A stretch of DNA of 64,000 bases, from contig CAVUWD010000006.1 of NCBI GenBank assembly GCA_963745025.1, positions 192,001 through 256,000 of the forward strand, read 5' to 3'. Each line of letters starts with the position of its first letter. Positions within the stretch are counted from its first letter, which is position 1. Source of the stretch: an uncultured delta proteobacterium. Lineage in GTDB: Bacteria; Desulfobacterota; Binatia; JACPRU01. The position numbers and the translations under genes were made by a program. Positions 20,632-30,585 of this stretch are shown in pieces. The notes below the pieces were generated by a model. The model did no database searches. It saw nothing but the letters and a program-made list of their open reading frames with translations, and was not told the DNA's origin.

Positions 20632-20648
20632 CTGGCACGGAATTTGGG
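20632..20648 (+). promoter_or_regulatory. Possible sigma-54 (-24/-12)-like promoter of the hydrogenase operon
   Basis: CTGGCACG-GAAT-TTGG has a perfect -24 box and correct spacing, but GG instead of GC at -12. It ends about 25 nt before the hypA start. Confidence 0.35.
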
Positions 20649-20673
20649 AGTCGAGGTGTTCGGAGGCTCGGCC

Positions 20674-21060
20674 GTGCACGAGCTGTCGATCTCGAGCGGG
20701 ATCATCGAGGTAGCGCGACGGGCAGTCACGTCGCCGCCGCTTTCGGCTGCGAGGGTTCTCCGGGTGGATGTCCGGATCGGGCGTCTCACCGGGATCGTTC
20801 CCGACATCCTTCGGCACTACTACGCGCTCCTGACGGTCGGTACCGAGCTCGAAGGGTCCGTCCTGGCCGTCGAGGTGGTTCCGGTCCGTGGCCGGTGCAG
20901 CGACTGTTCGGCGGCCTTCGAGATCGATGACCTGAGCTTCGGCTGCCCATTTTGCGGCTCGGGATTCTCGGAGATCTTCTCGGGGAAAGAGCTCGAGGTC
21001 GTTTCGCTCGAGACCGCCGAGGATGGCAACGAGAATCGCGAGGTGGCGTATGGAAATTGA
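20674..21060 (+). CDS. hypA: Hydrogenase maturation nickel metallochaperone HypA
   Basis: MHELSI N-terminus (GTG start), CSDC and CPFC zinc motifs, SGKEL. Confidence 0.93.
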   Translation: MHELSISSGIIEVARRAVTSPPLSAARVLRVDVRIGRLTGIVPDILRHYYALLTVGTELEGSVLAVEVVPVRGRCSDCSAAFEIDDLSFGCPFCGSGFSEIFSGKELEVVSLETAEDGNENREVAYGN

Positions 21061-21742
21061 GATTGGGCGCAAGGTTCTCGAGACGAACGACCGGATTGCC
21101 GATCAGAACCGGAGGGTCTTCGACGTACTCGGCGCCTTCGTCGTGAACCTGATGAGCGCTCCGGGAAGCGGCAAGACGTCGCTCCTCGAGCGCACGCTCG
21201 CCGCCGTCGACGGCACCCTGCGCACCGCCGTGATCGAAGGCGACGTGCGCGGCTCGCTCGACGCCGATCGGCTGGCGCGCTTCGAGCTGCCGATCGTCCA
21301 GATCAACACGGACCCGCTCTTCGGCGGCGAGTGTCATCTCGACGCGCCGATGGTGCGTGATGCGCTCGAGCGGCTTCCCCGCGAGTGGTTCGACCTCGTC
21401 GTCATCGAGAACGTCGGCAACCTGGTCTGCCCGGCGGAGTTCCGCGTCGGGGAGGATCTCAAGGTGATGGTGCTCTCCGTCGCCGAAGGCGACGACAAGC
21501 CGCTCAAGTATCCCTTGATGTTCCAGGAGTCCGCGTTGCTGCTGCTCAACAAGATCGATCTCCTCCCTCACGTCGACTTCGACGTCGCGCGCTTTCGCGC
21601 CAACGCCGCGCGAGTCAATCCGCGCCTCGAGGTCATCGAGACCTCGGCGCGGACGGGAGAAGGCATCGATCGGTGGATCGACTGGCTTCGTGCTCGAGTC
21701 GGCGAAGCCGCGAGCGGGAGGCGCTCATGTGGCGAGACCTGA
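21050..21742 (+). CDS. hypB: Hydrogenase nickel incorporation GTPase HypB
   Basis: SAPGSGKT, ECHLDA, ENVGNLVCPAEF, EGDDKPLKYP, NKID. Confidence 0.95.
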   Translation: MEIEIGRKVLETNDRIADQNRRVFDVLGAFVVNLMSAPGSGKTSLLERTLAAVDGTLRTAVIEGDVRGSLDADRLARFELPIVQINTDPLFGGECHLDAPMVRDALERLPREWFDLVVIENVGNLVCPAEFRVGEDLKVMVLSVAEGDDKPLKYPLMFQESALLLLNKIDLLPHVDFDVARFRANAARVNPRLEVIETSARTGEGIDRWIDWLRARVGEAASGRRSCGET

Positions 21743-22890
21743 ACGGTTCGATCGTCCCTCGAGCGGCTGAGGCCGAGGACTGGGAGGGCTGGCCCGGCTC
21801 GCGCTGGCAGGAGCGTGGCGTCTCGCGCCGCGCCTTTCTGCGCTTCTGCGCTGCGATGACTGCGACGCTCGCCTTGCCCGAGCGCTACTTGATGCGCGTC
21901 GCGCACGCGCTCGAAGCGGTTCGCCGCCCCCCGCTCGTCTGGCTCGAGTTCCAGGATTGCGCCGGCTGCACGGAGTCGTTCCTGCGCGCGAGCCGACCCT
22001 CGGTGGGCGACATCGCGTTGGACATCCTCTCGGTCAATTACCACGAGACCATCATGGCGCCGTCGGGAAAGGCTGCCGAAAAATCGCTCCGCGACACGAT
22101 CGAACAAGAGAAGGGCAAGTACCTCGTGGTCGTCGAGGGATCGATTCCGACCAAGGAAGGTGGCGTCTACTGCACCATCGGCGGGCGCACCGCGCTCGAC
22201 ATCGCCCGCGAGGTATGCGGCCAAGCGGCCGCCACGATCACGGTCGGCGCCTGTGCCTTCTACGGCGGCTGGCCCTCGGCACGGCCGAACCCGACGGGCG
22301 CGGTCGGCGTCGCGCAGGCGGTTCCCGGCATCACGCTGATCAACCTACCGGGATGTCCCCCGAACGCGGTCAACATCACGGCGACGGTCGTCCACTACCT
22401 GACCTTCGGGGCACTGCCGGCGACGGATCAGCAGGGGCGACCGCTCTTCGCTTACGGAGAGCGGATCCACGACCGCTGCGAGCGTCGGGCGCATTTCGAC
22501 GCCGGCGAATTCGTCGAGGAGTGGGGCGACCAGGGGCACCGGCAGGGCTGGTGCCTCTACAAGATGGGCTGCAAGGGCCCGGAGACCTACCACAACTGCC
22601 CGACGGTGCGGTGGAACGACGGCACGAGCTGGCCGGTCGGCTCCGGACACGGCTGCGTGGGCTGCGCCGAGCAGTACTTCTGGGACACCATGTCGCCCTT
22701 CTACCGCCGGCTCCCGGAGGTCCCGGGTGCGGGGATACAGACCACGGCGAATCGAATCGGCGGGTGGATCGTCGGCGGCACGGCCGCTGCCTTCGCCGCC
22801 CACGGCGTGGCATCGGCCGTGCGGGCCAAGCTCGTTCCGCGCGCGCCGCAGCAGGATGCTGAGGAGCCCTCGACGAAAAGCGAATCGTGA
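21727..22890 (+). CDS. hyaA: Group 1 [NiFe]-hydrogenase small subunit with Tat signal and C-terminal membrane anchor
   Basis: SRRAFLRFC twin-arginine motif, QDCAGCTES, GACA..GG, PGCPPN, IHDRC, CLYKMGCKGP, NCP..WP..GHGCVGC, C-terminal TM helix. Confidence 0.95.
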   Translation: MWRDLNGSIVPRAAEAEDWEGWPGSRWQERGVSRRAFLRFCAAMTATLALPERYLMRVAHALEAVRRPPLVWLEFQDCAGCTESFLRASRPSVGDIALDILSVNYHETIMAPSGKAAEKSLRDTIEQEKGKYLVVVEGSIPTKEGGVYCTIGGRTALDIAREVCGQAAATITVGACAFYGGWPSARPNPTGAVGVAQAVPGITLINLPGCPPNAVNITATVVHYLTFGALPATDQQGRPLFAYGERIHDRCERRAHFDAGEFVEEWGDQGHRQGWCLYKMGCKGPETYHNCPTVRWNDGTSWPVGSGHGCVGCAEQYFWDTMSPFYRRLPEVPGAGIQTTANRIGGWIVGGTAAAFAAHGVASAVRAKLVPRAPQQDAEEPSTKSES

Positions 22891-22909
22891 CCCAGGAAGG
22901 AGTCCAATC

Positions 22910-24619
22910 ATGGCGAAGATCGCGATCGATCCGATCACCCGCATCGAGGGACATCTGCGCATCGAAGCCCAGGTCGAAGGCGGAAAGGTCGCCGACGCCT
23001 GGAGCTCGAGCACGATGTTCCGCGGCATGGAGCTCGTGCTGAAGGGGCGCGATCCGCGCGACGCTTGGCTCTTCGCGCAGCGCATTTGAGGCGTTTGAAC
23101 GACGGTTCACGCCAACTGCTCCGTGCGAGCAGTAGAAAACGCCCTCGGTATCGAGATTCCGGACAACGCCCGGATCATCCGCAATCTGATTGCGGGCATC
23201 CAGTACGTCCAGGACCATGTGGTCCACTTCTATCATCTGCACGCGCTCGACTGGGTCGATATCACGAGCGCGCTCCAGGCCGATCCTGCCGAGACCTCGA
23301 AGCTCGCGCAGTCGCTTTCGCCTTGGGCGAAATCGAGCGCGGTCTACTTCAAGAGCGTGAAGGACCGTCTCAAGAAGTTCGTCGATTCCGGCCAGCTCGG
23401 GCTCTTCGCCAACGGTTATTGGGGGCACCCGGCGTACAAACTGCCTCCCGCCGCGAATCTCATGGCGGTCGCTCATTACCTCGAAGCGCTGGACTGGCAG
23501 CGCGAGGTCATTCGCATTCACGCGATCCTCGGCTCGAAGAATCCCCACCCGCAGACCTATCTGGTGGGAGGCATGGCGATCCCACTCGACCCGAACAGCT
23601 CGGCGGCGCTGAACGCCGACAAGCTCGCCCTTCAACGCCAGCTCCTGGTGCAGGCGAAGCAGTTCGTCGATGAGGTCTACGTGCCCGACCTCCTCGCCGT
23701 CGCCTCGTTCTACAAGGAATGGGCGGGGATCGGTGCGGGGATCGGCAACTACCTCGCCTGCGGCGACTTTCCCCTTGATTCGAGCGGCGATCCGTCGCGG
23801 CTGTGGCAGCCCGCGGGAGTGATCCGGAACCGCGACCTCGCCAAGATCCATCCCTTCGAGCACCAGAAGGTGACGGAGTACGTGACACACTCCTGGTACG
23901 AATACTCAGGCAGCGACGGCGCTTCGAAGCACCCGTGGGACGGCGAGACGAATCCTCGCTACAGCGGCCCCAAGCCGCCCTACGAGTTCCTCGACACCGA
24001 CGGCAAGTACTCTTGGCTCAAGGCGCCGCGCTACGAGGACGAGCCCATGGAGGTGGGGCCTCTCGCGCGCATGCTCGTCGCTTACGCTTCGGGGCACGGA
24101 GCGGTCAAGACGGCGGTAACCGGCGTCCTCGCTCATCTCGGCGTGGGCCCCGAGGCGCTTTTCTCCACCCTCGGACGAATCGCGGCTCGCGGCATCGAGA
24201 CCCAGGTGACCGCGGCCGCGCTTCTCGACTGGCACGATCAGCTCGTCGCCAACATCCGGCGAGGCGATCTGCGCATCCACAACGGTGCGAAGTGGGATCC
24301 ATCTCGCTGGCCTCCCGAAGCGCGCGGCTTCGGCTTCCACGAGGCGCCGCGCGGTGCGCTCGGTCACTGGGTGCGGATCGAAAAGGGTGCGGTGTCGAAC
24401 TACCAGTGCGTGGTGCCGAGCACCTGGAACGCCTCGCCGCGCGATGCCAAGGGAAAGCGCGGTCCCTACGAGGCGGCGCTGCTCGAGACGCCGGTCGCGG
24501 ACCCGGAGAAGCCTGTCGAGATCCTACGCACCGTCCACTCCTTCGATCCCTGCATGGCGTGCGCCGTTCACGTGAGCGGAGTCGGGCGCCGGCCAATCAC
24601 GCGGATCCAGGTGGCGTAG
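22910..24619 (+). CDS. hyaB: Group 1 hydrogenase large subunit (569 aa) with two in-frame TGA codons at the N-terminal CxxC, predicted Sec60 and Sec63
   Basis: ATG after AGGAAGGAG. DPITRIEGH..MFRGME..QRI-TGA(23087)-GV-TGA(23096)-TTVH continues in frame into ORF 23123..24619 (HFYHLHALDW, EAPRGALGHW, VVPSTWN, SFDPCMACAVH plus a 15-aa cleavable tail). Confidence 0.92.
23090..23113 (+). promoter_or_regulatory. Stem-loop 1, directly after the first TGA (candidate SECIS; encloses the second TGA)
   Basis: GGCG-tt-TGAAC-[GACG]-GTTCA-CGCC, 9 bp with a 2-nt bulge. Confidence 0.55.
23115..23133 (+). promoter_or_regulatory. Stem-loop 2, putative SECIS for the hydrogenase UGA codons
   Basis: Perfect 7-bp stem ACTGCTC-[CGTGC]-GAGCAGT starting 17 nt after the second TGA. 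The loop is nearly identical to the redoxin hairpin loop (CGTGT). Confidence 0.72.
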
Positions 24620-24621
24620 TC

Positions 24622-25308
24622 ATGACGGACACGACACAAACGACGGCCCCGACAGTCCCGGTGGCTCCCTACCGGCAAGTCTACGTATGGGAGTTCCCGG
24701 TGCGTCTCACGCACTGGGTGAATTTCGCGGCGATCGGCGTACTCTCGGTGACCGGCTTCTACATCGGCCACCCATTTCTAGCCGGCGGCGGCTCGCTCAT
24801 GAGCTGGATGAGCGCCGTTCACCGCCTGGCCGGGTACGCGCTCGTCGCGAGCCTCCTCCTCCGCGTTTATTGGGCCTTCGCCGGGAACCAGTGGGCGTCC
24901 TGGCGGGCGCTATTCCCATGGCTCACGCCCGATGGGCGAGCAGCGATGCGGCAGACCTTCCTCTATTACACCTTCGTGCGGCGCGAGCCGCCGCGCGAGG
25001 TCGGTCACAACCCTCTCGCCGGCATGGCGTACTCGGCGGTCGTGGCGCTCCTCGCGGCGGAGGTGGCGAGCGGGTTTGCCCTCTATTCGATGGGGCGGGG
25101 CGGGGGCTGGACGATCGCCTTCGGCTGGGTCTTCTGGATCGCCAGTCCGCAGATCGTGCGCCTCGCGCATCATCTCATCATGTGGCTGCTCCTGGGCTTC
25201 GCGGTCCACCACGTCTACAGCTGTGTGCTGTTGGAGGTGGAAGAGCGAAACGGCCTCGTCACCAGTATCTTCTCGGGTTACAAGCTCGTCCGCAGGAGCG
25301 TGCACTGA
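24622..25308 (+). CDS. hyaC: Ni/Fe-hydrogenase b-type cytochrome subunit
   Basis: VYVWEFPVRLTHW, GHNPLA, RLAHHLIMW, VHHVY, SIFSGYK. Confidence 0.93.
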   Translation: MTDTTQTTAPTVPVAPYRQVYVWEFPVRLTHWVNFAAIGVLSVTGFYIGHPFLAGGGSLMSWMSAVHRLAGYALVASLLLRVYWAFAGNQWASWRALFPWLTPDGRAAMRQTFLYYTFVRREPPREVGHNPLAGMAYSAVVALLAAEVASGFALYSMGRGGGWTIAFGWVFWIASPQIVRLAHHLIMWLLLGFAVHHVYSCVLLEVEERNGLVTSIFSGYKLVRRSVH

Positions 25309-25838
25309 AGACGTTGGTGCTCGGGTGCGGCAACGTTTTGCTCGGCGACGACGGGGCCGGCGTGTGGGTGATCGAGCAACTGCGGTGCGCCTACGTGTTT
25401 CCGGCGAACGTGTCGCTCGTCGAAGCGGGAACGCTCGGCCTCGATCTCCTCGCGGAGTTCGATGGCGTAGAGCGTCTGTTGGTCGTGGACGCGGTCGCCG
25501 CCGGCCGCGCGCCCGGAGACCTCGTCCGCCTGGAGGGAGACCAGGTGCCCTCGGTGCTCGAGCTCAAGACATCGCCTCACCAGGTGGGGCTCGCGGATCT
25601 CTTGGCCGGGGCCAAGCTCCTCGCCCGCTGGCCGCGCCAAGTCGTGCTCTGGGGCGTCGAGCCGGCGCTTCTCGATCCGGGAACGAGGTTCTCGCCCGAG
25701 GTCCAGCGCATGCTGCCGTCCCTGGAGGCGGCGGTACTCGACGAGCTCGCCCGCTGGGGGATCGAGGTCATGCCTCTCGAGGATGCACCGCCGCCGGCTC
25801 TGTGGTGGCTTCCGCCGACGACGGAGGGGGCGCGGTGA
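25305..25838 (+). CDS. hyaD: Hydrogenase maturation protease
   Basis: LVLGCGNVLLGDDGAG, EAGTLG, LVVDAV, SPHQVG. Probable CTG start overlapping the cyt b stop (CTGA) with AGGAG 6 nt upstream; alternative TTG at 25314. Confidence 0.88.
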   Translation: MKTLVLGCGNVLLGDDGAGVWVIEQLRCAYVFPANVSLVEAGTLGLDLLAEFDGVERLLVVDAVAAGRAPGDLVRLEGDQVPSVLELKTSPHQVGLADLLAGAKLLARWPRQVVLWGVEPALLDPGTRFSPEVQRMLPSLEAAVLDELARWGIEVMPLEDAPPPALWWLPPTTEGAR

Positions 25839-28114
25839 GCCAGCCGACCGCATGCCGCGTCTTGGTCGAGGGCATCGTCCAGGGAGTCGGATTCCGCCCC
25901 TTCGTGCATGCGATCGCGCGCCAGTACCAGCTGGCCGGCCGCGTGCGCAACACGAGCCACGGAGTGGAGATCGAGGTCGAGGGAGAGCGCGAGGAGATCG
26001 GTGAGTTCGTCGCAGCGCTGCGCGATCGCCCGCCGCCGCTCGCGCGCATCGAGCGGATCGAAGCGCAGGAGATCGTGCCCTCCGGGGTCGAGGGCTTTCG
26101 CATCGATCCCTCGGCCGACGGCGATGGCTTCCTTCCGATCTCGGCTGACATCGCGACTTGCGAGGAGTGCCTGCGGGAGGTCGAGGACGTCTCCGATCGC
26201 CGCTTCGGCTACGCCTTCACGAACTGCACGAGCTGCGGGCCGCGCTTCACGATCCTCCGCTCGGTTCCCTACGACCGGCCGAACACGACGATGGCCGAGT
26301 TCGCGATGTGCTCCGCGTGCCGCGCGGAGTACGAGGATCCAACCGACCGCCGTTTCCACGCGGAGCCCATCGCCTGCCCGCAGTGCGGGCCTTCGCTGGC
26401 CCTGCTCGACGCCACCGGACGCACACTGCCGGGTGACCCGCTGACCGGGATCCGCCGCGCGCTCGCGGACGGGCGTATCGTCGCGATCAAGGGAATCGGC
26501 GGTTTCCATCTCGCTTGCGACGCGCGGCAGGAGATGGCGGTGCGGCGACTGCGCCGCCGCAAGGTGCGCGAGGGCAAGCCGTTCGCCCTGATGGCGGCGG
26601 ACCTCGCCGAGGCCGAGCGACTCTGCTTCACCTCTGCGCGGGAGCGGCGCCTCCTCGAGTCGCGTGCGCGGCCGATCGTGGTTCTACGCGAGCGACCCGA
26701 TTCGGGGATCGCCGCCTCGGTCGCCCGGCCGCTTTGCCATCTCGGCGTCATGCTGCCCTACTCGCCGCTCCATCCTCTGCTCTTCTCCGACGCCGCCTGT
26801 CCGCGCGCGCTCGTGCTCACCAGCGGGAACCGCTGCGGCGAGCCGCTCGCTCGCGACAACGGCGAAGCGCTCGGGCGGCTCGGCGGAATTGCCGACCTCT
26901 TTCTCGTCCACGACCGCTCGATCGAGGTGCGCTGCGACGATTCGGTCGTCCGCGTGGTGGGCGGAGAGGAGCTGCCGATCCGACGCTCGCGCGGCTACGC
27001 CCCGTATCCAGTCCGTCTACCCCTCGAATCGCCGCCGCTGCTCGCGTGCGGGGCCGACCTGAAGAGCACGGTGTGCGTCGCGCGCGGCCGCCACGCGTTC
27101 CTCTCACCACATGTCGGTGACCTCGAGGACGCGGAGACCTGGCGGTCGTACGCGCGGATGGCAGCGCACATGGAATCCATCTTCCGCGTGCGGCCCGAGG
27201 CAATCGTCCACGACGCTCACCCGGACTACTTCTCGACCCGCTACGCCCTCGGGCGCGATCGGTCGCTGCCGCATCTCGCCGTGCAGCACCACCACGCCCA
27301 CGTGGTCTCCTGCATGATCGAGAGCGAGCTGGCGGGAAGCGTGATCGGCGTCGCTTTCGACGGCACGGGTTACGGCGCCGACGGGGCGATCTGGGGCGGC
27401 GAGTTCCTGGTGGCGGACTACGCGTCTTTCGAACGTGGCGGCCACCTCGCTTACGTGCCGATGCCGGGAGCTGCCCGGGCCGTCCATGAGCCCTTCCGCA
27501 TGGCACTGGCGCACCTGATCGCGGGATGCGGTTCCACGCGGGGCATCGCCGCGGCTGCGGTCGGGGCGACGGAGGCGGAGATCGCCGCCGTCCAGTGGCA
27601 GATCGCTCACGCCGTGAATGCGCCGCTCACCTCGAGCATCGGGCGGCTCTTCGACGCGGTCGCCTCGCTCGCCGGCATCCGTCACCGTGCGCTGTACGAG
27701 GGTCAGGCGGCGATGGAGCTCGAGGCTTGCGCCGCCCGCGGAGAGACGGGGTCGTATCCGTTCCCGATCACCGGCGAGCGGCCGACGGTCGCCGATCCCG
27801 GCCCGCTCGTCGCCGCGGTCGTGGAGGAGATCGCACGGGGGATCGCGCCGTCGATCGTGAGCGCCCGCTTCCACAACTCGGTGGCGCGGATGGTCGTCGA
27901 GATGTGCGAGCGGATCCGCGCCGCGACCGGTCTCTCCCGCGTGGTCTTGACCGGAGGAGTATTCCAGAACGCGACGCTGCTCGAGCAAGCCGTCGAGCGG
28001 CTCGCGGCGCGCGGCTTCGCGGCGCACCGCCACCGCAAGGTGCCCCCGAACGACGGCGGCATCGCGCTCGGTCAAGCGGCGATCGCCGCCGCGCGCCTGA
28101 CGGAGGACCGCTGA
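25835..28114 (+). CDS. hypF: Carbamoyltransferase HypF
   Basis: GIVQGVGFRPF acylphosphatase domain, zinc-finger CxxC pairs, KGIGGFHLACDA, QHHHAH, PNDGGIALGQ. Confidence 0.95.
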   Translation: MSQPTACRVLVEGIVQGVGFRPFVHAIARQYQLAGRVRNTSHGVEIEVEGEREEIGEFVAALRDRPPPLARIERIEAQEIVPSGVEGFRIDPSADGDGFLPISADIATCEECLREVEDVSDRRFGYAFTNCTSCGPRFTILRSVPYDRPNTTMAEFAMCSACRAEYEDPTDRRFHAEPIACPQCGPSLALLDATGRTLPGDPLTGIRRALADGRIVAIKGIGGFHLACDARQEMAVRRLRRRKVREGKPFALMAADLAEAERLCFTSARERRLLESRARPIVVLRERPDSGIAASVARPLCHLGVMLPYSPLHPLLFSDAACPRALVLTSGNRCGEPLARDNGEALGRLGGIADLFLVHDRSIEVRCDDSVVRVVGGEELPIRRSRGYAPYPVRLPLESPPLLACGADLKSTVCVARGRHAFLSPHVGDLEDAETWRSYARMAAHMESIFRVRPEAIVHDAHPDYFSTRYALGRDRSLPHLAVQHHHAHVVSCMIESELAGSVIGVAFDGTGYGADGAIWGGEFLVADYASFERGGHLAYVPMPGAARAVHEPFRMALAHLIAGCGSTRGIAAAAVGATEAEIAAVQWQIAHAVNAPLTSSIGRLFDAVASLAGIRHRALYEGQAAMELEACAARGETGSYPFPITGERPTVADPGPLVAAVVEEIARGIAPSIVSARFHNSVARMVVEMCERIRAATGLSRVVLTGGVFQNATLLEQAVERLAARGFAAHRHRKVPPNDGGIALGQAAIAAARLTEDR

Positions 28115-28116
28115 CC

Positions 28117-28419
28117 GTGTGCCTCGGTGTTCCCGGCAAGGTGCTCGAGGTCCAGGGAAACGTTGCCGTCGTGGATTTCTTCGGCCTGCGTCGGCCGGTA
28201 CTGCTCGACGTCGTCGACGAGCCGGTGGCTCCGGGCGACTTCGTGCTCAATCACGTGGGCTACGCCATCCGCCGGATCCCGCCCGACCAGGCGCAGGCGA
28301 CGCTCGCGTTCTACCAGCAGTTGCTCGGCGAGGCGGCCGAGGACGCGATGGCCGCCGACGTTCGTGGAGAGATCACAGGCACCGGCGAGCCAAAGGGACC
28401 CGACGATGGATCCGACTGA
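28117..28419 (+). CDS. hypC: Hydrogenase assembly chaperone HypC
   Basis: (M)CLGVPGKV N-terminus and GDFVLNHVGYAI. Confidence 0.92.
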   Translation: MCLGVPGKVLEVQGNVAVVDFFGLRRPVLLDVVDEPVAPGDFVLNHVGYAIRRIPPDQAQATLAFYQQLLGEAAEDAMAADVRGEITGTGEPKGPDDGSD

Positions 28420-29545
28420 GCAGGCGCGTCGCGAACTGAAGTTCCGCGATCCCGGGAAAGGTCGCGCGCTCGCCGCAACGCTCGCCCGCGTGGTCGCCGA
28501 CCTCGGGCGGGCTCCGGTTTCGGTCATGCACGTCTGCGGTAGCCACGAGCAGGCAATTGCGAAGTTCGGATTGCGCGCCACCTTTCCGAAGGGGCTCGAC
28601 GTGATCATGGGGCCGGGCTGCCCGGTGTGCGTGACCGACGTTCCGGAGGTGGACGAGGCGGTGGCGCTGGCGGAGCAGGGAGTGCGCGTCGCCACCTACG
28701 GCGACATGCTGCGGGTACCCGGGAGCGCCGCCTCGCTCGCCGACGCCCAGGCGGAAGGCGCGAGCATCGACGTCGTCTATGGCGCGGCGCAGGCGGTCGA
28801 GGTCGCGCGTCGCACCGAGGACGAGGTGGTATTCTTCGCCTCCGGCTTCGAGACGACGGCGGTGGCGACCGCGGCCGTGCTGCTCGGCCATCCGCCCACG
28901 AACTTCTCGGTGCTGTCGGCGCACAAGTACATTCCCCCGGTCATGGAGATCGTTGCCGAGATGCCCGGGACGCGCATCGAGGGGTTCCTCGCCGCCGGCC
29001 ATGCCGCAACCATCACCGGCTGGGGGGTCTTCGAGCCCTTCGTCGAGCGCCACGGGATCCCGGTGGTCGTGGCCGGGTTCGAGCCGCTCGACATCCTGGC
29101 GGGGCTCGTGAAGCTGGTCGATCTCATCGCCGAAGGTCGGCCGCGCGTCGAGAACATGTATCCGCGCTGCGTGACGCGAGAGGGGAATCGGAACGCCCAG
29201 GAGCGACTCTGGCGGGTCTTTCGGCCGACCGGGGGATGCTGGCGGGGGATCGCCCACGTCCCCAACGGGAACCTGAGACTCCGCGACGAGTTCGCCGAGT
29301 TCGATGCGCGCCGCCGCTTCATGATCGACCTCCGCGGCGTCCGGATGCGCGCTCCGCGAGCGCTCGTCGACCAGTGCCGCTGCGGCGAGATCATGTCCGG
29401 CACCGCCTCGCCACGCGATTGCCGACTCTTCGGGAGAGAATGCGTGCCTGAGACGCCCGTCGGCGCGTGCATGGTGAGCAGCGAAGGCACGTGCAAGATC
29501 TGGCACCTGTACGGCGGCCACCCGGATCTCGGGAGCCGGGCATGA
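28406..29545 (+). CDS. hypD: Hydrogenase formation protein HypD
   Basis: MHVCGSHE, GPGCPVCVT, GFETT, PVGACMVSSEGTC. Confidence 0.95.
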   Translation: MDPTEQARRELKFRDPGKGRALAATLARVVADLGRAPVSVMHVCGSHEQAIAKFGLRATFPKGLDVIMGPGCPVCVTDVPEVDEAVALAEQGVRVATYGDMLRVPGSAASLADAQAEGASIDVVYGAAQAVEVARRTEDEVVFFASGFETTAVATAAVLLGHPPTNFSVLSAHKYIPPVMEIVAEMPGTRIEGFLAAGHAATITGWGVFEPFVERHGIPVVVAGFEPLDILAGLVKLVDLIAEGRPRVENMYPRCVTREGNRNAQERLWRVFRPTGGCWRGIAHVPNGNLRLRDEFAEFDARRRFMIDLRGVRMRAPRALVDQCRCGEIMSGTASPRDCRLFGRECVPETPVGACMVSSEGTCKIWHLYGGHPDLGSRA

Positions 29546-30585
29546 CGCTTCGGTCGGCGGCGCGCGACGAGCGCATCGGGCTCAAACACGGTGCAGGTGG
29601 CCGAGCCATGCGCGCGCTCATCGAGCAGGTTCTCGCCCGCGGCTTCATCGACCCCGCGGGCGCGAACGGCTTCGGTCTAGCGGCGATGGACGACGGTGCC
29701 GCCTTGCGCATTGGGGATCGCTGGCTCGTGATCACCACCGACTCGCACGTCATCCACCCGATCTTCTTCCCCGGGGGTGACATCGGGCGACTCGCCGTCG
29801 CGGGTACGGTCAACGACCTCGCGGTGATGGGGGTGACCGATATCCTCGGCCTGACCTGTGCGGTGATCGTCGAAGTCGGCTTCCCGCGTGCGGATCTCGA
29901 GCGCATTCAGCAATCCATGCAGGCGACTTGCCTGGAGGCCGGCACGACCGTGCTGACCGGCGACACCAAGGTGATGGGGAAAGGGGAGATCGACGGTATC
30001 GTCATCAACACCACTGGAATCGGTCTCACCAGCCGAGTGGTCCCCGACCGCGGACTCGGCCCCGGAGATCGCATCCTCGTCAGCGGAACGATCGGCGATC
30101 ATGGGCTCGCCATTCTCGCCACTCGCCACGGCTTGGAGCTGGAAGGCGAGATCCGTTCCGACGTTACTCCGCTCGGAGGTCTGGTGCAGACGGTGCTCGC
30201 CGCCGCCGGCGATGGGGTCGTGGCGATGAAGGATCCGACGCGCGGGGGCCTCGCGAGCGCCCTCCACGAGATGGCGGAGAAGAGCGAGGTCGGCGTCCTC
30301 CTCGACGAGGCGGCGATCCCGGTTTCGCCGGCGGTTCGTTCGGCCGCCGAACTCCTCGGCATCGATCCGCTGCACGTGGCGAACGAAGGCAAGGCGGTGA
30401 TCGGGGTGCACCCCGAGGCGGCGGAGAAGGTTCTCGCGGCGCTACGCGCCCACCCCGCGGGCCTCGACGCCGCGATCGTCGGCACCTGTGTCGCGGAGCC
30501 GATCGGGCGGATCATCGTCGACACAGGCTTTGGGCGACGCCTGCTGGTCGAGCCGGAGGGCGAGCCTCTGCCTCGCATCTGCTGA
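29542..30585 (+). CDS. hypE: Hydrogenase expression/formation protein HypE
   Basis: HGAGG, TTDSH, GTVNDLA, DPTRGG, ANEG, C-terminal PRIC. Confidence 0.95.
   Translation: MTLRSAARDERIGLKHGAGGRAMRALIEQVLARGFIDPAGANGFGLAAMDDGAALRIGDRWLVITTDSHVIHPIFFPGGDIGRLAVAGTVNDLAVMGVTDILGLTCAVIVEVGFPRADLERIQQSMQATCLEAGTTVLTGDTKVMGKGEIDGIVINTTGIGLTSRVVPDRGLGPGDRILVSGTIGDHGLAILATRHGLELEGEIRSDVTPLGGLVQTVLAAAGDGVVAMKDPTRGGLASALHEMAEKSEVGVLLDEAAIPVSPAVRSAAELLGIDPLHVANEGKAVIGVHPEAAEKVLAALRAHPAGLDAAIVGTCVAEPIGRIIVDTGFGRRLLVEPEGEPLPRIC

Follow-up and report, generated by a model that had tools for sequence, protein, structure and literature searches.

We propose that a single RNA hairpin, acting as a selenocysteine insertion sequence (SECIS), probably serves two in-frame UGA codons in the gene for the large subunit of a Group 1 uptake [NiFe] hydrogenase, with each codon read as selenocysteine (Sec). 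The gene lies on the forward strand at positions 22910 to 24619 of a 64,000-nucleotide stretch of DNA (hereafter the window) from an uncultured delta proteobacterium (contig CAVUWD010000006.1, positions 192,001 to 256,000). Two stem-loops, hairpin 1 and hairpin 2, stand in tandem behind the first of the two codons, UGA-1 and UGA-2. The original prediction, made from the letters of the window, held either that each hairpin serves one UGA in turn, or that hairpin 2 serves both while hairpin 1 modulates read-through. Our comparison with homologous genes supports hairpin 2 as the element for both codons, and it argues against hairpin 1 as a second SECIS and lends no support to hairpin 1 as a modulator.

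The large subunit gene has 569 codons, beginning with an ATG at 22910 and ending with a TAG. With TGA read as Sec (U), its product matches PF00374 over the full length of the profile (E 8.5e-238, positions 1-508 of 508). R-I-U-G-V-U-T-T-V-H is the nickel motif at the N-terminal end, and DPCMACAVH, its C-terminal counterpart, keeps its Cys codons. In an alignment with the D. gigas chain 1frv_B (offset +5), UGA-1 (codon 60, forward strand, 23087-23089) corresponds to residue 65, the first Cys of RxCGxC, which we take to be a terminal Ni ligand. UGA-2 (codon 63, forward strand, 23096-23098) corresponds to residue 68, the second Cys of that motif, described as bridging Ni and Fe (PMC13582414). The UGAs replace two of the four nickel-binding Cys positions, and the two C-terminal ones stay Cys. 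Among solved chains the best match is 3myr_B (E 4.6e-224), followed by Hyd-5 and Hyd-1, all of which we presume to be Group 1 enzymes. Like the canonical [NiFeSe] hydrogenases (1cc1_L, 2wpn_B), the window enzyme would be a Group 1 periplasmic protein with a selenium ligand to nickel, but those chains are much more remote from it (E about 1e-93) and carry Sec at the first position of the C-terminal DPCxxC, where the window has DPCMAC with Cys codons. PF00374 with both metal motifs, a small subunit with a twin-arginine signal, a PF01750 protease and an open reading frame (ORF) that resembles a cytochrome b in its sequence features are all present, and the protein is a large subunit of the Group 1 membrane-bound uptake type. 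The longest ordinary ORF in the gene, with TGA as a stop, begins only at 23123; gene callers truncate such genes at TGA, and hence hydrogenase surveys will under-count them.

Both hairpins appear in the minimum-energy fold of 23080-23145, and the two in-frame TGAs and the two tandem stem-loops originally reported are borne out. Hairpin 1 (23090-23113, forward strand) consists of a 5-bp stem (23090-23094 with 23109-23113) and a 4-bp inner stem (23097-23100 with 23105-23108) closed by the loop GACG, and the G and A of UGA-2 are paired within it. One base separates it from hairpin 2, the probable SECIS (23115-23133, forward strand), in which 23115-23121 and 23127-23133 form seven perfect base pairs around the loop CGUGC (23122-23126). 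The conserved core of hairpin 2 comprises six of these pairs (23116-23121 with 23127-23132), and the outermost A-U pair (23115/23133) is found in only 6 of the 32 TGA-bearing rows of the alignment described below. The loop G, 23123, stands 34 and 25 nt past the last base of UGA-1 and UGA-2, as had been stated. Taken by itself the 66-nt fold (-23.1 kcal/mol, z = -2.01) is merely moderately unusual, since 7 of 200 dinucleotide shuffles were equally stable. The reported excess of A/T-ending codons near the hairpins is also correct, with 7 of the 17 sense codons in codons 59-77 ending in A or T versus 17% gene-wide (G+C at third positions 0.83; binomial P = 0.016).

A protein-guided scan with one genome per species yielded 80 loci with 65-83% identity, and a genome of the same genus (G001; 85% identity, two TGAs) was added from a search among relatives. 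The analysed set has 81 homologous rows, the window and G001 included. We designate genes with TGA at both sites as UU, those with TGA at the second site only as CU, and those with Cys codons at both as CC. There are 24 UU, 8 CU and 49 CC rows and none with TGA at the first site alone (UC), so that TGA is present at site 2 in 32 of the 81 rows and at both sites in 24. Left out of these counts were L023 (a duplicate of L019), L017 and L021 (on the minus strand of their loci), L081, L095 and L100 (Ala for Gly in the motif) and L022 (unreadable at the motif). L017, L021, L081, L095 and L100 are all Cys-Cys, and with them the tally among genome loci becomes 24 UU, 8 CU, 54 CC and 0 UC; the structural statistics use the 49 CC rows. 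The UU genes come from Methylomirabilota, Nitrospirota, Chloroflexota and Thermodesulfobacteriota, and the CC relatives include genes of Geobacter, Roseiflexus and Acidobacteriota. A FastTree phylogeny was built from the proteins after masking of the two sites. One half of it mixes UU, CU and CC rows, for which at least 11 changes of state are needed, and the other half (30 rows) is entirely CC. Two side observations concern individual loci. The G001 homolog (L019/L023) is represented by two matching pieces that overlap near residue 410, suggesting a frameshift or an assembly error, and the three loci with Ala for Gly, which are from Acidobacteriota/Terriglobia, read R-I-C-A-V-C-T-M-V-H, with Ala where the Gly of the nickel motif is usually conserved.

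Hairpin 2 is a conserved structure that is linked to TGA. When the 32 TGA-bearing segments (UU and CU) were compared in an ungapped alignment, the six-bp core was intact in 28, namely 20 of 24 UU and all 8 CU, versus 1 of the 49 CC rows, and in the remaining four UU rows the stem is shifted by one base in register with one bulge (-9.5 kcal/mol). Compensatory changes occur at three pairs (AU in 12 rows, UA in 12 and GC in 4; GC in 24 and CG in 4; CG in 29 and UA in 2), the covariation score was reached by none of 500 shuffles, and when the partners are slid by 1-3 columns only 26-46% of cells remain paired instead of 87.5%. In some cases the substitution also changes the amino acid, as at codon 70 with Cys, Ser or Ala, and pairing is kept by the matching synonymous base in the Ala codon on the other side of the stem. 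RNAalifold independently predicts the same six pairs, and the loop is CGUGC, CGUGA or GGUGA in all 32 rows. The mean energy of the 21-nt segment is -8.96 kcal/mol in UU, -8.24 in CU and -3.83 in CC genes. In a control in which synonymous recodings were drawn using each gene's own codon usage, the mean z of hairpin 2 was -2.12 for UU (12 of 24 genes with p ≤ 0.05) and -2.84 for CU (7 of 8) versus 0.02 for CC (1 of 49), and the third positions of codons 69-73 vary less in TGA genes (entropy 0-0.54 bits) than in CC genes (1.50-1.82 bits).

The link between hairpin 2 and TGA is also seen along the tree. Across eight phylogenetically independent pairs that differ in TGA-2, hairpin 2 differed in the same way in seven, in the opposite way in none, and was unchanged in one (p 0.016), and in close pairs it has decayed after loss of TGA, as in the CC locus L040 next to the UU locus L050. 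RNAalifold predicted no further UU-specific structure in 180-nt alignments of UU, CU and CC genes; a pairing upstream, around the GRDPRD codons, was rejected as a UU element because the CC alignment shows it too. An alternative lower stem (23090-23095 with 23138-23143) was likewise rejected, as its positions in the alignment are variable without covariation. A permissive Rfam scan of 22900-23300 matched no SECIS family and gave a sole chance match (E 5.8).

According to the consensus for bacterial SECIS elements in a 2026 review (PMC13188914), the upper stem has 4-16 bp and the loop 3-9 nt, loop position 1 or 2 is a G that usually precedes a G or U, the loop lies 16-37 nt from the UGA, and the energy is no higher than -7.5 kcal/mol. 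Hairpin 2 has a loop of 5 nt, a stem of 7 bp (6 bp in the conserved core), the loop G in 32 of 32 TGA-bearing rows and, for the 21-nt segment in the window, an energy of -10.2 kcal/mol. Its loop begins 23 nt (UGA-2) and 32 nt (UGA-1) past the two codons, both within the range. For hairpin 1 the corresponding distances, 11 nt (UGA-1) and 2 nt (UGA-2), are too short for either codon, and a conserved loop G is lacking. Hairpin 2 occupies identical columns in UU and CU genes, and hence the RNA gains nothing new when the first codon turns UGA.

The reciprocal state (U-x-x-C), with UGA-1 in the absence of UGA-2, was sought in a metagenome collection and appeared on two contigs, L115 and L114. The gene on L115 (a 66.7-kb contig, with the gene on the minus strand of the locus) is full-length, encodes the C-terminal Cys motif and has TGA at site 1 only, preceded by ATA, with an intact hairpin 2 at the usual place. 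Its nearest analysed row is the CC gene L028 (90% identity), which keeps the CGUGC loop together with five of the six pairs of the stem. L114, a fragment of 1.1 kb, has TGA at site 1 and lacks hairpin 2; it may be a broken gene or an error. With UGA-1 alone and hairpin 2 in place, L115 implies that at least one natural gene would rely on the 32-nt spacing alone, and as a single case it supports the idea that hairpin 2 serves UGA-1.

Hairpin 1 presents a different picture. Five of its nine pairs are invariant, but this is because the amino acids dictate both bases (GG and GU of Gly-Val, the UGA, AC of Thr, GU of Val, CA of His and GC of Ala). At the three pairs where a third position is free to vary, pairing is lost in 8, 10 and 11 of the 32 TGA-bearing rows, among which no real compensatory change was found. 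Both stems are complete in 10 of 24 UU, 2 of 8 CU and 4 of 49 CC genes, and the energies of the segment are nearly equal in CC and UU (-6.10 versus -7.18 kcal/mol). The mean z relative to synonymous recoding is -0.53 in UU, +0.32 in CU and +0.44 in CC, and independent pairs reveal no link between hairpin 1 and TGA-1 (same way 2.8, opposite 0.4, unchanged 3.8; p 0.5 and 1). The loop begins with the last base of the Thr64 codon (among the 24 UU rows, 13 with G, 6 with A, 4 with T and 1 with C), and the second base is always A, so that the loop G is missing in 11 rows (Thr64 = ACA, ACT or ACC). Conservation linked to TGA was found for hairpin 2 and was not found for hairpin 1.

These data bear directly on a dual arrangement, in which hairpin 1 would recruit SelB for UGA-1 and hairpin 2 would do so for UGA-2, two preloaded complexes acting in turn. 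The presence of both hairpins within the minimum-energy fold is consistent with it, as is the inner stem of hairpin 1, which is complete in 18 of 24 UU versus 3 of 8 CU and 12 of 49 CC genes. We nevertheless consider it very improbable, given the short distance from UGA-1 to the hairpin 1 loop relative to the 16-nt minimum of the model, the unconserved loop G, the lack of compensatory change, the scarcity of complete stems, and the results of the recoding and independent-pair analyses. In addition, hairpin 1 is weakened or broken in the closest other relatives. In G001, of the same genus, a Gly codon change breaks one pair (-8.3 kcal/mol, p 0.13 versus recodings), and at the Methylomirabilia locus L024 the segment has only -3.8 kcal/mol. 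Hairpin 1 seems instead to result mostly from the near-palindromic nature of the codons that specify G-V-U-T-T-V-H-A, and a role as a second SECIS is not supported by the comparison.

Hairpin 1 could also act as a lineage-specific helper to hairpin 2 as the sole SECIS, by pausing the ribosome, by hiding UGA-2 from release factor 2 or by preventing mispairing of hairpin 2. Within the window, hairpin 1 is more stable than its own synonymous recodings (-10.3 versus a mean of -5.9 kcal/mol, p 0.043), GTT is used at both Val62 and Val66 even though it accounts for 5% of the Val codons of the gene, and there is the regional excess of A/T-ending codons. However, three of the seven A/T endings (ATT, CGA and GCA) are explained by hairpin 2 and by the codon before UGA-1, the closest relatives do not keep hairpin 1, the mean z across UU genes is only slightly negative, and the mRNA channel of the ribosome, given its known size, would already enclose the 5' arm of hairpin 1 with UGA-1 in the A site and leave none of that hairpin paired with UGA-2 there, so that hairpin 1 would be unwound before either UGA is decoded. 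At Val66, where GTT closes the inner stem of hairpin 1, this codon is used by 18 of 24 UU genes (4.46 expected) and, also in excess, by 17 of 49 CC genes (5.77 expected). We regard a helper role as unlikely and the residual signal of hairpin 1 as at most weak and lineage-local, and the suggested modulation of read-through has no comparative support. The selenium-dependent synthesis of the hydrogenase that was to follow from such modulation would follow trivially if both UGAs need Sec.

The codon that precedes UGA-1 carries a signal of its own. The Ile codon at this position is ATA in 20 of the 24 UU genes versus 6.25 expected from gene-wide usage, including UU genes that are otherwise without any ATA, but in none of the 8 CU genes and in 2 of the 28 CC rows with Ile; across independent pairs the two features differ in the same way in 5.1 and in the opposite way in 0 (median p 0.06). 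ATA stands at this position in the U-x-x-C gene on L115 and also in its Cys relative L028, and the window and G001 use ATT (23084-23086, forward strand, in the window). This Ile codon is a possible context signal for UGA-1, for which the P-site tRNA, the base preceding the UGA and a pause are candidate routes. Codon usage after UGA-2 (Thr64-65, 23099-23104) is also biased: at Thr64, ACC is nearly avoided (1 of 32 TGA-bearing versus 26 of 49 CC genes), and Thr65 is mostly ACG (third-position entropy 0.78 versus 1.57 bits), possibly reflecting a context requirement 3' of UGA-2.

The organism that harbors the window is, to judge from its genes, able to use Sec. Its genome encodes one tRNA-Sec with anticodon UCA (76.5 bits) together with SelA (571.2 bits), SelB (397.3 bits) and SelD (385.4 bits), all past their cut-offs, and selD, selB and selA adjoin one another outside the window (contig C20, 20417-25012). 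Among the other TGA-bearing genomes, SelB passed the cut-off in 25 of the 30 tested (G001 lay outside this test), and in 31 of the 49 CC genomes; the five TGA-bearing genomes without a full SelB match have SelA in five of five cases and tRNA-Sec in four of five. Global reassignment of TGA in the organism was rejected, since TGA stops the small subunit gene, the tRNA-Trp anticodon is CCA, and UCA is found on tRNA-Sec alone.

One or both UGAs could nonetheless have a meaning other than Sec: Cys inserted by a Sec-like Cys tRNA, Trp inserted by near-cognate read-through, or the decay of a pseudogene. For U-x-x-U genes, Takano et al. (2026) caution about a Cys-accepting tRNA(ReC) (PMC13582414), and the apparent frameshift near residue 410 in the G001 copy would fit with decay. 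However, ARAGORN predicts 52 tRNAs in the genome of the window, of which only tRNA-Sec reads UGA, and no second Sec-like or UCA tRNA was found there, although an unusual tRNA could be missed. UGA-1 is retained in 24 genes with otherwise intact frames, it has its own context signature in the preceding ATA, and hairpin 2 decays once TGA is lost, all of which makes a reading other than Sec appear quite unlikely to us.

The conservation of hairpin 2 alone indicates that one insertion signal probably serves both codons, and from the sequence comparisons we infer SelB binding to hairpin 2, Sec at both UGAs and the order of events. Hairpin 2 (core 23116-23132, loop CGUGC) would recruit SelB and Sec-tRNA for both codons, hairpin 1 would have to be melted during the decoding of either UGA, and the SECIS probably first arose for UGA-2 in the C-x-x-U state and was co-opted later, once the first Cys codon had become UGA. 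Several considerations weigh against one element serving both codons. The rows are related and raw row counts hence overstate their independence, and the convincing U-x-x-C genes number only one. The E. coli SECIS is described as a 17-nt mini-hairpin located 11 nt from the UGA (PMC8659212), whereas hairpin 2 starts 16 and 25 nt after its UGAs. In E. coli each UGA is stated to be recoded with an efficiency of 30-40% (PMC4513850), which would make two successive UGAs costly. The window's own hairpin 1 outperforms its recodings, and GTT at Val66 is enriched in UU genes, as noted above. With these points included, we still regard a single SECIS, hairpin 2, as the probable arrangement. A more speculative extension, which we put forward only tentatively, is that SelB docks, leaves and re-docks on the same hairpin within three elongation steps and at two distances, allowing two Sec insertions three codons apart, that the rare AUA before UGA-1 (AUU here) and, in this lineage, hairpin 1 may provide a pause, and that the product is a Ni site with one terminal and one bridging Se ligand.

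The closest parallel is provided by Takano et al. (2026), who report C-x-x-U, U-x-x-C and U-x-x-U motifs in Group 4 enzymes, term U-x-x-U previously unrecognised and suggest that one SECIS may decode both codons; their survey covered Group 4 only (PMC13582414). As in the U-x-x-U Group 4 [NiFeSe] enzymes presented there, both Cys of the N-terminal motif in the window are replaced by UGA codons 9 nt apart with one downstream hairpin that has a loop G, and C-x-x-U relatives share the hairpin. Unlike the energy-converting Group 4 complexes, the window enzyme belongs to Group 1, with a twin-arginine small subunit and a putative membrane cytochrome, and the case for its hairpin goes beyond the Group 4 example in resting on compensatory changes, a synonymous-recoding control and one U-x-x-C gene. 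According to the same paper, two Group 1 C-x-x-U N-terminal sequences were listed by Baltazar et al. (2011); these have Sec at the second, Ni-Fe bridging position (PMC13582414), as do the 8 CU genes found here, but in the window the first, non-bridging ligand is also recoded. Full-text literature searches turned up no account of a Group 1 hydrogenase with U-x-x-U, although the supplements to PMC13582414 may list more, and the Candidatus Sulfobium genome paper merely names a [NiFeSe] hydrogenase (PMC5812927). Other predicted bacterial U-x-x-U selenoproteins include a Prx-like oxidoreductase, an FmdB-family protein and a metal-binding protein, in which the two UGAs are two sense codons apart, as here, but these are thiol-redox or metal-binding proteins with no hydrogenase active site (PMC13188914). 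Hairpin 2 resembles the SECIS of E. coli fdhF in lying in the reading frame 3' of the UGA and in having G-U in a small apical loop, but the fdhF element is described as having a bulged U (PMC8659212), and hairpin 2 in most rows has no bulge.

The wider interest of the window concerns both translation and catalysis. Bacterial SECIS elements are taught as strictly spacing-dependent, yet the series of C-x-x-U genes, U-x-x-U genes and one U-x-x-C gene with the hairpin in place suggests that one element acts at 23 and 32 nt. Action at two spacings would bear on the access of SelB to the A site and on the engineering of proteins with multiple Sec residues. We know of no study, in any natural enzyme, of two selenium ligands on the N-terminal side of a Ni-Fe site. 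In E. coli Hyd-1, engineered single Cys-to-Sec swaps are described as altering catalytic bias (PMC11212049).

The large subunit gene is part of a hydrogenase operon that is complete in the window, with all of its genes on the forward strand. Upstream are hypA and hypB (20644-21742; PF01155 and PF02492) and the small subunit gene (21727-22890, start estimated; PF01058 and PF14720), whose product has the twin-arginine signal SRRAFLRF, a C-A-G-C motif for the proximal cluster and a C-terminal hydrophobic tail. Its TGA stop (22888-22890) lies directly upstream of the large subunit gene, and its likely ATG lies 16 nt inside the end of hypB (21727-21742). Downstream are an ORF (24623-25308) that, by the sequence features of its translation, probably encodes a b-type cytochrome subunit as membrane anchor, and for which no family match came up, its own frame not having been scanned, the maturation protease gene (25365-25838, start approximate; PF01750, E 3.4e-26), and the maturation genes hypF, hypD and hypE (25850-30585, limits approximate; HypF domains, PF01924 and AIRS/AIRS_C). 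Elsewhere in the genome, selD has an in-frame TGA followed by an 8-bp hairpin whose loop, GGC, starts 17 nt downstream, and it was the only usable further SECIS example, as frames free of TAA and TAG near molybdopterin-enzyme matches open by chance in this G+C-rich DNA. Two such molybdopterin-oxidoreductase matches, both outside the window, contain in-frame TGAs: one on contig C7 (74816-76045) has four, and one on contig C16 (402524-403792) has a single TGA and may be a Sec-containing formate dehydrogenase.

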